A stretch of 64,000 nt of DNA from a virus: the IMG/VR virus record IMGVR_UViG_3300031368_000001, positions 32,001 to 96,000 of that record; one strand, written 5' to 3'. Position numbers and translations under genes: made by a program. Numbering within the stretch: position 1 is the first letter of the stretch; each line of letters begins with the position of its first letter. Positions 1,969 to 51,636 of the stretch are shown here, one piece after another. A model generated the notes under the pieces. It had not been told where the DNA came from. It made no database searches and saw only the letters and a list, made by a program, of their open reading frames with translations.

Positions 1969-2298
1969 ATGCGGAAGTTCTTAATCGTGCTGAGCATTAT
2001 CTGCATGCTCTTCATCGTAAGCGTCGCCCAAGCAGCTGACGTGGTTATCACGGCAAAGATCCAGAGCGTAACTACTGCCATTGATAAAAATGGCAATCCG
2101 TACGTCCGGTTCATAGTCGATGAAACTCGTAAGATGCAAGGAGTCGAGTACGAGGTAGGAGTAGCAGTAATGGCCTTCAGAGGTACAGTCAAGGAAGCAA
2201 AGACTCTTAAAGACGGAGATGTTCTTAAAGCTATCTGTAGCGAGAAAGAGTATCAAGGTCGGAAGTCTTACACTATCCTGAAGCTGTTGCCTAAGTAA
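1969..2298 (+). CDS. Secreted/periplasmic OB-fold-like protein (moron-like)
   Basis: Signal peptide MRKFLIVLSIICMLFIVSVAQA; beta-rich body (DKNGNPYVRFIV...LKDGDVLKAIC); strong SD AAGGAGGTG; own terminator. Confidence 0.7.
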   Translation: MRKFLIVLSIICMLFIVSVAQAADVVITAKIQSVTTAIDKNGNPYVRFIVDETRKMQGVEYEVGVAVMAFRGTVKEAKTLKDGDVLKAICSEKEYQGRKSYTILKLLPK

Positions 2299-2307
2299 GG
2301 CAAACCT

Positions 2308-2371
2308 GGAAGGGGAGATTCGGTCTCAGATCTCTTGATTGAGACAAAGACTGAATCTTCCCTTTTTTTTT
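2308..2371 (+). terminator. Intrinsic terminator, possibly bidirectional
   Basis: GGAAGGGGAGATTCGGTC...GACTGAATCTTCCCTTTT stem followed by a T9 run. Confidence 0.8.
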
Positions 2372-2392
2372 ATGTATTGATAGTTTTTATTA

Positions 2393-2429
2393 GTTTCAAT
2401 CCTTGTTTTAGTAGACCCCCGCCCTTCAC
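2393..2429 (-). CRISPR. Solitary CRISPR repeat unit (37 bp)
   Basis: Minus strand GTGAAGGGCGGGGGTCTACTAAAACAAGGATTGAAAC; 37 nt ending in the AAAACAAGGATTGAAAC tail typical of Cas6-processed type I/III repeats; single copy, no cas genes in window. Confidence 0.75.
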
Positions 2430-2441
2430 AGGTTTTTTATT

Positions 2442-2470
2442 ATTATAACATAGACAAAAGGAGAAAGCAA
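2442..2470 (-). promoter_or_regulatory. Sigma70 promoter reading into the solitary repeat
   Basis: TTGCTT (2470-2465) - 17 bp - TATAAT (2447-2442), with extended -10 TGn. Confidence 0.7.
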
Positions 2471-2472
2471 GC

Positions 2473-3681
2473 ATGCAACACACACTTGGAAAATTACGAA
2501 TCAATGATATGCCTTTACCAGCCAGAGGGCATATTGAAATCAATGGTGATAAAGTAAGATTAATTATGAAAGACCTTCGCCGAGGTAAACATTACACCAT
2601 GAGTGACTCAATGGCTTCCGATGCCCAGCGCATAGTCGATTGCGTCAACGGCTGTATAGGAATCGAAAATCCGGGAGCGATAATGGAGGCTGTGGAAGCA
2701 TTAAAGTTAGCTGATGGAATAGCCAGCACACTCATGGATGAACTCGTCGGTATCAAGGCTACAAACTGGAGCATCGTTAATGGTGGCCTTGTAAGAATAG
2801 GCAATGCTCTTAAAAATATCCAGAAGGAATAAAATCATGATCGACATATACACTAAAGTAATTCTAACTATCATAGGCATAACACTTATCGGTCTTCTAT
2901 TACAGCCGATAATAATGCCTAAACCAAGTATAGCAGATGGAATCGTAGCAGTCGATCTCGTCCGCATCAATGGCTACTATGTTCAGAATCCGCTGGAAGT
3001 GAAGGTGGTGAAAAGATAATTGTGATAGAGAAGGGTAACCATGTTCTACATAGGATTAACAGTTGGAATATTTATCGGATTTGTAATCGCAGCACTGATG
3101 GTTATGGGTAGAAAGGAATCATGAAAATCCAAGACATCCTGGCTTCCCTGGAAAAAAAATCAAAGCTGAATACCTTCCTGAAGATATTCTTTGCATACGT
3201 AACTCTTTGCGGCCTAACCATGTTCCCTTGTTTCATCATGGAAGAATCAATTCAGATGACAACTTTTGGGACATGGCCAGCGAAGGATGCAAAAAATTGG
3301 AGCCTAGTATTAAAAGGCTGCGACACAATAAACAAAATTAATCTTTCTTTAAAGATCATAAATTATTCGGTTGGGTGGGTTCAACCACTTGCCTTTTTTT
3401 CATATCGATCATTTTCACATGGAACCGATTACTACGTTAAAAGTTTAAAAACCCTTGCATTCGCCAAATCCCCAGAAAGCTTCGATGGCAGAAAGATTGA
3501 ATTCACGTTTACTCCTCAGAGAATAATTCAGGAAGGCGGAAAGGTAATCTTAGTAAATAGAACCATTAGAGTAATCGTAGATAAGGTCCCCATTGAGAAG
3601 TCAGTAAAAGTGAAAGGGATTGTTAAAGTAGAAAATAATTTAGTGATAGTGGAGGATGAAGATGGACATAACAGGAATTGA
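2473..3681 (+). other. Hypothetical ORFs 2473-2832, ~2836-3019 (TM), 3121-3681 (TM)
   Basis: ORF track; hydrophobic N-terminal segments. Confidence 0.6.
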
Positions 3682-6718: not shown

Positions 6719-6886
6719 GGAAAATATTGGAAGATAAAAATATGGATCGAGGTAGATGAAGAAATACCAGATGTATGGAATAATAAATCTGAGTGTATAA
6801 CAGAAAGCAAGCATCTACAATCTATACAACCAGAAAATAAGTATGAGTGTATAGAATGTGATGAGAACGGAGAGGAGCTATGACCT

Positions 6887-9800
6887 ATGGGCGATAAATG
6901 CTGGATACAAATGATATTCAGGAAAGAAGACCAGGGGAAGTTTGAGAAGATACTCGGAGATTGCTGGGACAACACAGACGAAGAAAATGGCGTAATGACC
7001 GGGAATGCCTATGAAGTAAACTATGGCCTCTATGAAGAAAGAGAAGAACTTGCTGAAACAGGCCTTACATTTTATGGGCATCATGGAGCTGGAGGAGACT
7101 ACAATGATTGTGTCTTTGCCTGTCATAATAAACATCACGTTGAATCCAATGCAGACTTTGATGGCAGACCGGTAGTTGCTATAAATACAAAAACCGGTGA
7201 AATATCTCAAATAGATCTCAGTATATTCTACAACTATCGAAGAGTTTACTTAGATGCTAAGGAATATATCGAGAGAGGAACATAAACTATGAAACAAGAA
7301 GACATAGATAAATATATAAATCATCGCGGACTTCACTGTCCATATTGCAATAGTCCAGAAATTGAAGGTAACTATGTAAATGTTGATGCTGGATTTGCAT
7401 GGCAAAAAATAAAATGTCTGAACTGTGATAAATCATGGATTAATATTTATAAACTAGTAAATATAGAGGAGGAATTTTGAAAATTAAACACATCAACGTA
7501 ATAGTCTCTAAAGCAATAGAGAAAAAAACCTGGCACGACAATCTATCCAAAGGAAGCAGGTGGGGCTTAACTTATGGCGCTGATGCTGACCTGAGCAGGC
7601 GGGATGACCCGATAGATTCCATTATAAGTTTAGATAACCAGCTGAGGGAGTTGATAGCGGAGAGGCTGGAGGGACCAGGAGGAAATAATGTGGACAAAAA
7701 AGTGGCCTGAAGAAAGAGGATTTTACTGGTTTTATGGACGACCATATAATTCTAATGGAATCTCATACTCTGATAAAGAAGAACTCTTCGTTGTTGAAGT
7801 AGTGAGAATCCACAAAAATTTCGTGATATGCATTAATCTTTCTGATGATACTACTGAATATGGTGAAAGCTTAATATCTGAAGAAAAAACACAGGGAATG
7901 TGGCAAAAGATACAGCCTCCAAAACTACCTGGGGATTACTATGACACTCACTGAATATCTCCATCAGAGAAAAATAAAGATTATATCTGACATCAAACGA
8001 GATAATAAAATCGATGCAGACAATTATCATAATGTTGGATTGCTGAAAGAAATTGAGAAGGTGATAGCTATAGCTGAGAAGTGATAATAGCTAGAAAATG
8101 GTAGTAGCTGCTGAGAAAAATGGAGAAATATGATAGGATAAAGCTATGAAAAAAAAATTAGTCTGTGATGAGTGCGGTGAAACAAATGATGTAATAACCT
8201 CAACTGTTTGGTGGACTGCATGGGGAAGAAATACCTTTGATCTCGCCTGGCAAAAAAATAAAGGCAAACTCTTTCTATGTGAAAAATGTGAAGAAGAAAA
8301 CTGGACTGTTTGCTGTGATTGTCAAGCTCTTATTGAAAATGATCATTATGGTCTTGGGTATCTATTAGGTGAAGAAATATACGGCGATAGTTTATGTCCA
8401 GAATGTGCAGAAAAGCGGGGCCTTAAAAGAACTTGCAGAATTGCAAATTATACAAAATAACAAACAACAATTTACCAGCTGTAAACAAACAACAAATTAC
8501 CAAAGGAGGTAAAAATGTTTGAAGTATTATTCTTTAACAATGGAAGTTCTGCTTGTCTGAAAGATGGAAAACAGGTACTAGAATTACAGGAATCATGGCT
8601 TTTGTTATATGTAAAATTCCTAGAAGAAAAAGGGATTGATCCTACTGATGGCATTTTCAGTATGCCAGGAGGGGAAGAAGTAAAAGTTTTCAAAACCGGT
8701 AGTGACTATAACTGGAGATTTCTATCAAAATCATGAAAATACATCTCAAAGTAAACAGTTCAAACCTACGACACACACGCTTCACAGTCTTTACTAACGG
8801 CGCGAATTGTGGCACACTTATAATGACGAATGAAGAGTTTAAGAGGTTTTGTGATTTGCTGAGGAAAGGCGCTGGGAATAATGTGGACTTGACCGCATCC
8901 GGGACAATATATACTGAGGAAGACAGGAGAGGAAGATGATAATAGAAGGAACCTGGCCAAAAGATGATTTACGAAGAGCTTTCGTAGCTGGCGCGAAATG
9001 GTGGGAGTATCATCAAACTAACTTTACTATGTGGCCGAGTGATCGAAAACTCGCAGAGACTAAAGCGGAAAAACTGTACCCCTCTGGCGAACCTAGAACT
9101 AAGGAGCAATAACTATGTCTGACTTTACCTGTCGTAACGGTCATCTCATGAGCATCAAAGATAAATTCTGCCCAATCTGTGGTCTACCAGTTAGATATGA
9201 AGATAGAAGAATAGATTATATAACCTATGAAGAGTATGTAAGAGAGTGGAAAAAAAAAGAACAACCATGCTCTTTATTCCAGGAGCCATTTATTTTAGAT
9301 GAGAGATATTCGCATCAAACAAGATACCATAACAGATGAAATCAGAGTCTCAACTGCCGCAATATATAGGGAAGAAGTATTTTATGATGGCCTTCATAAA
9401 TACTGGCTTATTGAAACCTGGTGTTTTAGCAAGGACCCAAAACAAAAAAGTTTTCAGGTTATATATGGCACACCAAGTTTTCTATATGATCAGATCAGAT
9501 GGAAGGCACGAAAAGTTCATGGATATATTGTAGAAAATTTAAGGAGAAATCATGACAGAAAGAACTCTCCGTAAACTAATCATAATCTTCTTAATTTTAG
9601 GAAGCATAGTAATCTTGGTAAAGATATTATAAGGAAAGAGAGGAATAGTAATGCTTGATATTAAAACAATACCAGACGATAGGCTCAAACAAGATTTAGA
9701 TGACAGCTATAAAGATATCATGGATTGCACAACAGCATTAAAAGTTGGAGTAACTCAGTATAGTGGCGGTTCAATCGAGGAACGCTTAAATAAGAATAAA

Positions 9801-10384: not shown

Positions 10385-11344
10385 ATGGCAACTAAGGGCC
10401 TAGCAAACAAAGCTATGTTGGTAAGTTTAGTTATATCACAATGGCTTACCAGAATAGTTGATAAGTCGATTACATGGCAAATTGCCAATGATCATAAAGC
10501 AAGCAAAGATGCAGGCACATACCGCAAACGTCTATTAGCAAACAAAGGCGCTGTAGCTAGAGTGCAGACTGCAGTAAGCGCGCTCAGAAGATATCATGGG
10601 CAGATGACTCTTCCTTGGACTAAGGGAATAGGAATTCTTGCGAGCTCAAAGTATACAGAGTACTCAGCTAAAATGAGAGGACTCATCAATGAATTCAAGG
10701 CAGCTGTCCTGGAGCTTCTTAATGAATATCCTATTTTAAAAGATGATGCAAAGTATGATCTTGGTGATATGTGGAAAGATGATGACTATCCAACAGAGAA
10801 ATGGCTTAAAGCAAAGTTCGATGTAAGGATTGATGTTTTTCCTGTTCCTCAAGCTGGAGACTGGAGGGTAGAGCTTACAGACAAAGAAATGGAAAAACTT
10901 AATAAAGAAATTGAGAAGCGCGAAGAAGAACGCACCAAGGAAGCCATGAATAAACTATGGGAGCGCCTGTATAAACCGGTAAAGCATATGGTTGAAGTTC
11001 TCAACAAAGATAATCCTAAGATCTTCAAGACACTTACTTCAAATATTATGAATCTCACAGAAATCCTGCCTGATCTTAACTTCACTGAAGATCCGAAGCT
11101 CGAGGATCTCAGAAAAGAGGTCCAGGATAAACTTTGTGAAATCTCAATAGACGAACTGAAAGAATCCAAATACTTTAGAGAAACTATAGCCGGAAAAGCC
11201 GAGGAGCTACGCCAGAAAATTAAGGAAGGTGGGGATATAACAGATGATGATGTTCTAGAAATGATGGATGGATATGTAGGAAATGAAATCATAGAAGAAT
11301 TTGGTCCACCTGTTGTTGGACAGAAAAAAATAAAGGGGGTGTGA
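10385..11344 (+). CDS. DUF3150-like phage protein
   Basis: AMLVSLVISQW...TLPW...DDYPT...F pattern; sits upstream of AAA+/VWA genes, as is typical. Confidence 0.6.
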   Translation: MATKGLANKAMLVSLVISQWLTRIVDKSITWQIANDHKASKDAGTYRKRLLANKGAVARVQTAVSALRRYHGQMTLPWTKGIGILASSKYTEYSAKMRGLINEFKAAVLELLNEYPILKDDAKYDLGDMWKDDDYPTEKWLKAKFDVRIDVFPVPQAGDWRVELTDKEMEKLNKEIEKREEERTKEAMNKLWERLYKPVKHMVEVLNKDNPKIFKTLTSNIMNLTEILPDLNFTEDPKLEDLRKEVQDKLCEISIDELKESKYFRETIAGKAEELRQKIKEGGDITDDDVLEMMDGYVGNEIIEEFGPPVVGQKKIKGV

Positions 11345-51090: not shown

Positions 51091-51636
51091 TTAAAGCCTC
51101 CCTATTTTTTTTACCCATACACTTGCGTCTAATAGTTCTATATTATCCGAGCCGAAAATTTCATCTACCGCTTGCTTAACACCAATTTTCTTACCGCCAT
51201 AATCATGTCCTGTCAGTAATCCTTCATACCCAACTAGCGGAAGCCAAGCTGTAATATCATTCAAAACAGATTCGTATTTATGATCAGCATCTATAAAAAC
51301 CAAATCGAAATATTTTTCAGGAAATAATCTAGCTGCTTCAAGAGAAGACATTCGTAAAATATGTAATTGTGGAAACCAGCGCATCAGTCTACATGCTTTA
51401 AGATAACACGCATCCCAGAATTCGTGTGTACGAGATCTATAATTCCAATGGCTAGTAAATTCCCAAAAATCGATTGCCCAATATTGAGAAATAATATCTT
51501 TACATGTGCTTAAAACTCGTTTCGTAGTACTTGATTTCCAAATTCCTATCTCTGCGATTATCAAATCTTTTTTATTAAACTCTTTCAAAAGATCTATCAA
51601 AACTTCTGCTTGATTCTTATATTCTTTTTTTTCCAT
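51091..51636 (-). CDS. Methyltransf_24-type SAM methyltransferase
   Basis: AEIGIWK, FDLVFIDADHKY, TGHDYG. Confidence 0.9.
   Translation of the reverse strand: MEKKEYKNQAEVLIDLLKEFNKKDLIIAEIGIWKSSTTKRVLSTCKDIISQYWAIDFWEFTSHWNYRSRTHEFWDACYLKACRLMRWFPQLHILRMSSLEAARLFPEKYFDLVFIDADHKYESVLNDITAWLPLVGYEGLLTGHDYGGKKIGVKQAVDEIFGSDNIELLDASVWVKKIGRL

Follow-up and report, generated by a model that had tools for sequence, protein, structure and literature searches.

Locus and source

A single CRISPR repeat unit was located in a 174-nt gap between two small plus-strand genes (1969-2298 and 2473-2832) in the genome of an uncultured salt-marsh phage, where it lies intergenic in the early arm, antisense to the genes around it and directly behind a predicted promoter. 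All positions refer to the window, which is the whole stretch of 64,000 nucleotides analysed here, and the window corresponds to bases 32001-96000 of the virus record IMGVR_UViG_3300031368_000001 (108,285 bases, estimated 77% complete). Its sequence is near-identical in several salt-marsh metagenome runs. The phage has a GC content of ~36%, and the first ~20 kb of the window are tiled by plus-strand ORFs; the neighbouring genes are indeed all on the plus strand, as the first-pass annotation of this DNA had described for the antisense repeat. The letters and distances given in that annotation all proved correct, and each element was found exactly where it had been placed. The features of the locus are as follows.

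1969-2298, plus strand: upstream gene, 109 aa, no Pfam match and no meaningful PDB match
2308-2366: hairpin, part of a plus-strand terminator element (2308-2371) that includes nine T
2371-2363, minus strand: run of nine A
2392-2372, minus strand: AT-rich spacer-like segment of 21 nt, directly after the handle
2393-2429, minus strand: solitary CRISPR repeat unit, single copy, with a 25-nt exact array match and an alignment to positions 13-37 of Rfam CRISPR-DR7
2393-2417, minus strand: 3′ part of the repeat, with a weak 4-bp stem, a loop and the 8-nt ATTGAAAC handle (2393-2400)
2441-2430, minus strand: gap of exactly 12 nt from the -10 element to the repeat
2442-2470, minus strand: predicted sigma-70-type promoter with extended -10, read directly from the letters
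2447-2442, minus strand: -10 element TATAAT
2450-2449, minus strand: TG extension
2470-2465, minus strand: -35 element TTGCTT, followed by a 17-nt spacer
2384-2443, no strand: strain-variable piece of ~60 nt that carries the repeat, with the 9-nt direct repeat TTTTTATTA at both edges
2473-2832, plus strand: downstream gene, 119 aa, first ~50 codons swapped in other strains

The two flanking proteins gave no Pfam, PDB or informative Atlas match and no sign of an Acr or Aca. No related viral contig was found through these two proteins and a nearby ATPase, and a blastn search with 3 kb had no match among 50,697 phage records; the portal protein has only distant relatives (~30%), which carry no host signal. 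Searches of the phage record yielded no Cas6 domain, no integrase (tyrosine integrases included) and no resolvase, which argues against a self-contained system and against use of the locus as an integration site.

Identity and extent of the repeat unit

The unit occurs once in the window and once in the whole 108,285-base record, so that its description as solitary holds at both scales. Its best single match is an array repeat of an archaeal MAG (L051), with 25 consecutive identical nucleotides (50.1 bits), and several further array repeats match over 23-24 nt (46-48 bits). The 18 nt at the 3′ end are identical to hundreds of repeats, without any substitution, and none of 100 control shuffles gave a match. 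In Rfam, the CRISPR-DR7 model (RF01320) matches with its positions 13-37 at 2417-2393, where each of the 25 bases is aligned with high confidence. Because the first 12 model positions have no counterpart, the match scores 21 bits, less than the gathering threshold of 37 bits, which leaves the unit outside formal membership. A scan of the whole window found no Rfam family at threshold. That the resemblance to a CRISPR repeat arose by chance, as the sub-threshold Rfam score might suggest, has a negligible probability in view of the 25-nt exact array match, the 18-nt exact match to hundreds of repeats and the 100 shuffles without a match. The locus is almost certainly a repeat-derived CRISPR unit.

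The 3′ 23-25 nt, with their short stem, A-rich loop and 8-nt handle, are certainly repeat-derived. The first 14 nt of the supposed 37-mer were compared with 86 distinct array 5′ parts and resembled them no better than shuffles did. Of the 37-nt repeat originally proposed, the coordinates 2393-2429 and the repeat-derived nature of the 3′ part thus stand, while the 5′ 14 nt do not rise above shuffle level, and the length of 37 nt rests on analogy. The stem comprises the pairs G-U, U-A, C-G and U-G, that is, two G-U pairs in a short stem, and its unusual T (TCTAY) is the regular repeat letter in the working-looking arrays L040 and L052. A short stem, an A-rich loop and an 8-nt ATTGAAAC handle define the 3′ end of the type I-B 37-nt repeat family, and the unit has all three.

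The definition used by SRUFinder (PMC10651486) calls a full match at a BLAST bit score of ≥41.1 with a coverage of ≥90%, and asks for an intergenic position, no second repeat more than 70% alike within 100 bp and no cas association. The unit reaches 50.1 bits, and ~25 of 36-37 nt align, which is below 90% coverage as measured against our own repeat sample, not SRUFinder's database. It is intergenic, and the best alignment in its flanks agrees with it in 24 of 40 columns (60%). No Cas6 domain is present in the 108-kb record (~77% complete), and no Cas families were found in the ten neighbouring ORFs.

Relatives in arrays and viruses

The conserved 3′ part is spread over many bacterial and archaeal phyla. 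Its 23-nt version with the stem T occurs in arrays of Methanosarcina, other Euryarchaeota, Cloacimonas, Clostridiaceae, Atribacterota, Desulfobacteraceae and an acidobacterium, and a looser pattern recovered 61 metagenome stretches, many of them with arrays of 10-80 repeats. The exact 25-mer had no match in the metagenome scan, and none of the arrays from the looser scans had the same full repeat or the same 5′ part. Because no array shares the full repeat and the 3′ part spans many phyla, no host is assignable in this way, and the expectation that matching the repeat to arrays would also predict the host was disappointed. No spacer against the phage was found in the ~120 fetched loci.

The subtype is indicated by L084, which is among the closest arrays and the only locus checked in this respect: its 55 repeats lie directly downstream of cas8b, cas7b, cas5b, cas3, cas1 and cas4, and this operon runs in the same direction as the repeat does when it is read to end in ...ATTGAAAC. 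The array of L084 is type I-B because of the adjoining cas operon. Therefore, the type I/III subunits first considered as partners of the repeat RNA can be narrowed to type I-B, on the basis of this one of the closest arrays.

Among viruses, the exact 18-nt 3′ end occurs in 38 viral-contig stretches, mostly as solitary copies and in a few cases as mini-arrays of 2-4 repeats (L004, L014, L025, L027 and L029), and many other viral solitary copies of this repeat family keep just the 3′ core. The window thus shares its repeat family with virus-borne mini-CRISPR arrays; unlike them, with their two or more clean repeats and true spacers, it holds one repeat.

A predicted promoter in sense orientation

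The predicted promoter (TTGCTT, 17 nt, TGt-TATAAT) stands 12 nt upstream of the repeat and in sense orientation to it. Its -10 element is perfect and has a TG extension, and its -35 element matches the consensus at only three of six positions, which is why the site was unlisted by a consensus promoter scan. The motif TGnTATAAT has six sites in the genome when both strands are counted (216 kb in all), and TTGnnn-N14-TGnTATAAT is unique to this site in the 108-kb genome; we estimate a chance of ~0.001 that one of the six TGnTATAAT sites would lie on the sense strand and no more than 40 nt upstream of the repeat. Transcription from here would start ~5 nt before the repeat unit on the minus strand. 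None of the public runs listed with the locus sequence is an RNA run. In a survey of 19 other solitary viral copies of the repeat family, the sense side did not exceed the antisense side in -10-like sites.

The other TGnTATAAT sites are likely promoters of the host RNA polymerase. They lie at genome positions 6812, 29958, 51252, 98023 (minus) and 26677 (plus), of which 51252 corresponds to 19252 in the window; the site at 6812 has a perfect TTGACA, and that at 51252 is ahead of a Shine-Dalgarno site and a start codon.

About half of the crude ORFs have a Shine-Dalgarno motif, and the phage has a bacterial-type SSB and T-rich intrinsic terminators. Based on these features and on the sigma-70-like promoters, we infer that the host is a bacterium that uses sigma-70 and Shine-Dalgarno motifs, not an archaeon or a member of the Bacteroidota.

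Strain variation

Contigs of four salt-marsh runs were aligned to the locus at 80% likeness to compare strains of the phage population. The X5 variant spans the whole locus and keeps the unit, with 20 differences in 2087-2333 and hardly any beyond, and the X7 variant reaches 2420 and covers most of the unit, so that the repeat unit is present in at least two diverged strains. The X6 contig leaves the window at 2370, and its next 30 letters align to 2375-2382 and 2444-2466; this variant is without ~60 nt (2384-2443), namely the repeat unit and its AT-rich flanks, and the two copies of TTTTTATTA at 2384-2392 and 2434-2442 form the edges of the piece. The repeat-less X6 allele has TGc-TATACT where the window has TGt-TATAAT, and it is the ~60-nt piece that supplies the last two bases making the -10 perfect. 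Because the promoter-like element is present in a strain without the repeat, it predates or outlives the repeat unit, and the promoter was not built for the repeat.

A further small contig of X5 (~150 nt, low depth) is otherwise unlike the window and has in common with it just 2363-2400, which comprises the A-run, the 21-nt segment and the 8-nt handle. As far as its 30-letter ends show, the homology breaks off precisely where Cas6 would cut, and the contig could carry a different repeat upstream of the handle. The sequence of this contig has no match in viral contigs or among the listed entries of the Racr supplement, and the three alternative allele sequences were not found in the viral contig scans.

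Some variation lies outside the repeat. In 2087-2333, variants in three runs differ at 20 sites (~8%), and X5 is near-identical to the window after 2333; this mosaic suggests a recombination joint inside the terminator hairpin. In the downstream gene, the first ~50 codons (2473-2625) are replaced by unrelated sequence in X6-X8, whose contigs have loose ends at 2626. Both alleles of this gene start with MQHT and have the C-terminal 79 aa in common at 80% identity (P0002), and the only database relative of the protein (80% over the C-terminal two-thirds) matches the N-terminal swap pattern of X6-X8.

These data bear on whether the unit is an inert relic, namely a piece of an array or of another phage's mini-array that was acquired by recombination and is drifting, with an incidental promoter and with any RNA from it idle. 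Such an origin would fit with the likeness to repeats in only the 3′ two-thirds, with the nature of the piece as an indel between strains that has AT-rich direct repeats at its edges, with the existence of the promoter-like element without the piece, and with the flanking genes, none of whose relatives carries the repeat, which leaves no evidence of conservation. However, what has been retained is precisely the functional core, with its stem, its loop and its handle, and 18 nt of it are free of substitutions. It stands in sense orientation 12 nt behind one of six extended -10 sites on the two strands (216 kb); moreover, the solitary units of many other phages consist of this 3′ core alone, and the piece is present in the diverged strains X5 and X7. 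We consider an inert relic rather unlikely, though still deserving of serious attention.

The hairpin belongs to the upstream gene

The strong hairpin at 2308-2366 does not serve the minus-strand repeat RNA as its own terminator, and it belongs to the plus-strand gene. The upstream gene's stop codon is followed directly by this sequence, which on the plus strand folds into a 19-bp stem with nine U behind it, and the fold is stronger there (-33.8 kcal/mol) than on the minus strand (-26.4 kcal/mol), on which no U-run follows the hairpin. The strain SNPs at 2310, 2321 and 2322 all keep the plus-strand pairing, two of them via G-U wobble, whereas on the minus strand the helix would be disrupted by two of the three. 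Based on the stronger plus-strand fold, the nine U and the SNPs that preserve plus-strand pairs, the hairpin is the intrinsic terminator of the upstream gene and not a dedicated one of the repeat RNA. The minus-strand RNA is without a canonical terminator, and the hairpin may stall exonucleases there.

A 14-nt imperfect inverted repeat (2302-2315 and 2422-2435) brackets the terminator and the repeat unit, and in a long-range fold of the minus strand the 5′ part of the repeat pairs with 2302-2315 (-40.7 kcal/mol, z -3.8). This fold was rejected as a conserved structure, as two of the three strain SNPs in that arm break the pairing.

The terminator also weighs on a possible role of the plus strand, on which all neighbouring genes lie. 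The mRNA leader of the downstream gene would contain a perfect 25-nt anti-repeat that could pair with the repeats of host pre-crRNA, or alternatively with the phage's own minus-strand RNA, and in doing so it would mask handle and Cas6b site or attract double-strand RNases, blocking crRNA maturation by antisense and not by protein sequestration. Since there is no convincing plus-strand promoter between the terminator and the next gene, and since the gap from terminator to gene is only ~25 nt in the repeat-less strain, this gene is probably reached by read-through, as an anti-repeat leader would demand. Nevertheless, a strong terminator of -33.8 kcal/mol with nine U stands in the way, no precedent was found in the literature consulted, and the promoter on the sense strand would be left unexplained, which makes an anti-repeat function very improbable.

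The spacer-like segment

Directly after the handle follow the 21 nt of low-complexity, AT-rich sequence and the nine A (2363-2392), which would form the body of a crRNA-like product. This spacer-like segment has no match above chance elsewhere in the genome or in 120 fetched loci and was not found in the viral contig scans, and its 21-nt part has no meaningful match in 0.8 Mb of fetched array loci. The 21 nt agree at 17 of 21 positions with a leader-side motif in L069 (~4975), L074 (781-801) and L096 (282-302), which is a conserved stretch of ~50 nt situated 200-240 nt from three I-B-family arrays, towards their leaders. As a target this motif was rejected, because the likeness is at chance level, has seed mismatches and does not extend. 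At 2362-2323, with 30 nt between it and the first repeat, is a weak candidate for a second, decayed one, which agrees with the first in 24 of 40 columns (60%). A score as high is reached by ~1% of shuffled sequences or random pieces of the genome, and the candidate falls on the plus-strand terminator.

Viral crRNA-like regulatory RNAs ("Cracr"), including predicted I-B ones, have been described and compete with crRNAs for Cas proteins; the definition of this class asks for a pair of degenerate repeats and for a known host target that is matched at 9 or more PAM-proximal positions (Liu et al., bioRxiv 10.1101/2024.10.29.618823). Like these RNAs and the host CreA/CreR elements, the window has a repeat-like element followed by a short spacer-like segment, here on a phage, while, unlike in Cracr, the second repeat is doubtful at 60% likeness. 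The locus might accordingly make a guide, whose processed RNA (handle plus ~30 nt) would load I-B Cascade and repress a host promoter via partial PAM-proximal pairing; the promoter of the cas genes, of a CRISPR-guarded toxin or of another defence system would be the targets in view, as for Cracr. A guide would have the same anatomy as a decoy, the weak second repeat at 2362-2323 would give it a repeat-spacer-repeat layout, and the published viral crlRNAs with predicted I-B members offer a precedent (bioRxiv 10.1101/2024.10.29.618823). The small X5 contig, which shares just 2363-2400, looks as if the handle and the spacer-like part were the conserved unit, but it is a single low-depth contig of ~150 nt seen through 30-letter ends. 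Likewise, the second "repeat" is also a palindromic plus-strand terminator and only 60% alike, the spacer-like segment is low-complexity and AT-rich, the 17/21 likeness to the leader motif of L069, L074 and L096 is no better than chance and mismatched in the seed, and no target can be named without a host. We therefore regard a guide as improbable.

A possible RNA decoy of type I-B systems

Solitary repeat units of viruses were first catalogued by Faure et al. 2019 (as cited in PMC10651486). Camara-Wilpert et al. (Nature 2023; PMC10651486) demonstrated that they are transcribed into small RNAs, which associate with Cas6 and Cas7 in aberrant complexes. Such RNA anti-CRISPRs (Racrs) have been validated for I-C, I-E, I-F and V-A and none for I-B, and the catalogue contains 2,103 viral units (PMC10651486). 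Among its listed entries, IMG/VR units with the same 18-nt 3′ end are labelled I-B or III-C, one same-family unit is our contig L020, and one solitary copy of this repeat family is given as a 26-nt unit; the unit of the window was not found among the entries listed (PMC10651486). Like the Racrs and other solitary units, the lone repeat of the window is intergenic, has no adjoining cas genes and stands directly behind a predicted promoter, and unlike the validated Racrs it is I-B-like and matches known repeats over ~25 of 37 nt, which is "partial" by the coverage rule of SRUFinder. As far as anatomy can tell, the unit resembles a Racr, and its decoy function is predicted. Because this anatomy agrees with what has been described for solitary repeat units of viruses, we favour a Racr-type RNA decoy aimed at type I-B systems as the best single explanation of the locus, with a probability of roughly 45%.

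Such a decoy could operate through the Cas6b processing known for this repeat family. In Clostridium thermocellum and Methanococcus maripaludis, Cas6b of the 37-nt-repeat I-B systems leaves an 8-nt AUUGAAAC 5′ tag, and a single repeat is sufficient for cleavage in vitro (Richter et al. 2012; PMC3479195). The unit of the window ends in the same 8 nt as this tag and, unlike the array repeats that stand beside cas genes in these two organisms, is a single phage copy with a different 5′ third and two G-U pairs. The first-pass statement that Cas6 cleavage of such repeats leaves an 8-nt handle is thus documented for a single 37-nt repeat of the family (PMC3479195), and the handle is intact in the window. 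The I-B crRNA of Haloferax needs only the 5′ handle and the spacer and no 3′ handle (PMC4326828). From single-repeat cleavage and the dispensable 3′ handle, it follows that one repeat followed by ~34 nt of anything would have a loadable I-B crRNA format.

We propose that the host RNA polymerase would produce a short RNA starting a few bases before the repeat, and that host Cas6b would bind the 3′ stem of the repeat and cut 8 nt before the repeat end. The downstream piece, consisting of the ATTGAAAC handle and the AT-rich body, would represent the minimal I-B crRNA format and could be taken up by Cas5 and Cas7, while Cas6b would stay occupied by the upstream piece. The useless complexes would rival the host's phage-targeting crRNAs, and interference would be weakened.

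Several lines of evidence support the decoy. The sequence identity is exact over 25 nt and 18 nt, the context of L084 is type I-B, the unit lies in sense orientation behind the one TTGnnn-N14-TGnTATAAT site of the genome, and the other TGnTATAAT sites look like true promoters. It is solitary, no Cas6, integrase or resolvase was found, the piece that carries it is a strain-variable accessory, and the stem T is regular in the arrays L040 and L052. The literature adds the single-repeat cleavage by Cas6b (PMC3479195), the dispensable 3′ handle (PMC4326828) and the catalogued units of the same family (PMC10651486). On the other side, the decoy is weakened by the lack of a host array with the full repeat, by a 5′ 14 nt that is not repeat-like and by a minus strand without a canonical terminator; by the promoter-like element in the repeat-less strain and the lack of a sense-side excess of -10-like sites among the 19 viral copies; and by the literature consulted, in which we found no validated I-B Racr, and the 120 loci, in which no spacer against the phage was found.

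Both mechanisms suggested by the first-pass annotation, Racr decoys (PMC10651486) and regulatory crRNA-like RNAs (bioRxiv 10.1101/2024.10.29.618823), are already published, and the locus therefore adds a candidate to a published class and not a new kind of system. Its interest lies in that it would be an I-B case, that it keeps the 3′ core only, and that it is polymorphic for presence and absence in one population. Type I-B is among the commonest subtypes in anaerobes and archaea, and the locus offers a compact I-B candidate of ~130 nt with a clear promoter, while the natural pair of alleles with and without the unit in one phage population is a ready-made field control. The locus also suggests that only the 3′ two-thirds of a repeat need be kept, which would help to tune searches that rely on near-full-length matches.

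Arrangements around other viral copies

Other viral members of the repeat family show two arrangements. In L018 (~2600-2700) and L012 (~8200-8290), a clearly decayed second repeat lies ~30 nt away from the first, and the layout is repeat-spacer-repeat, as in crRNA-like regulatory RNAs. In L007 and L028 (both ~1700-1800), L021 (~2700-2800) and L037 (~10400-10500), the non-conserved 5′ part of the repeat pairs with sequence 50-60 nt downstream, so that the conserved 3′ core comes to lie within the large loop of a hairpin; this hairpin is preceded by a TTGACA/TATGAT promoter and followed by a T-run in L007 and L028.
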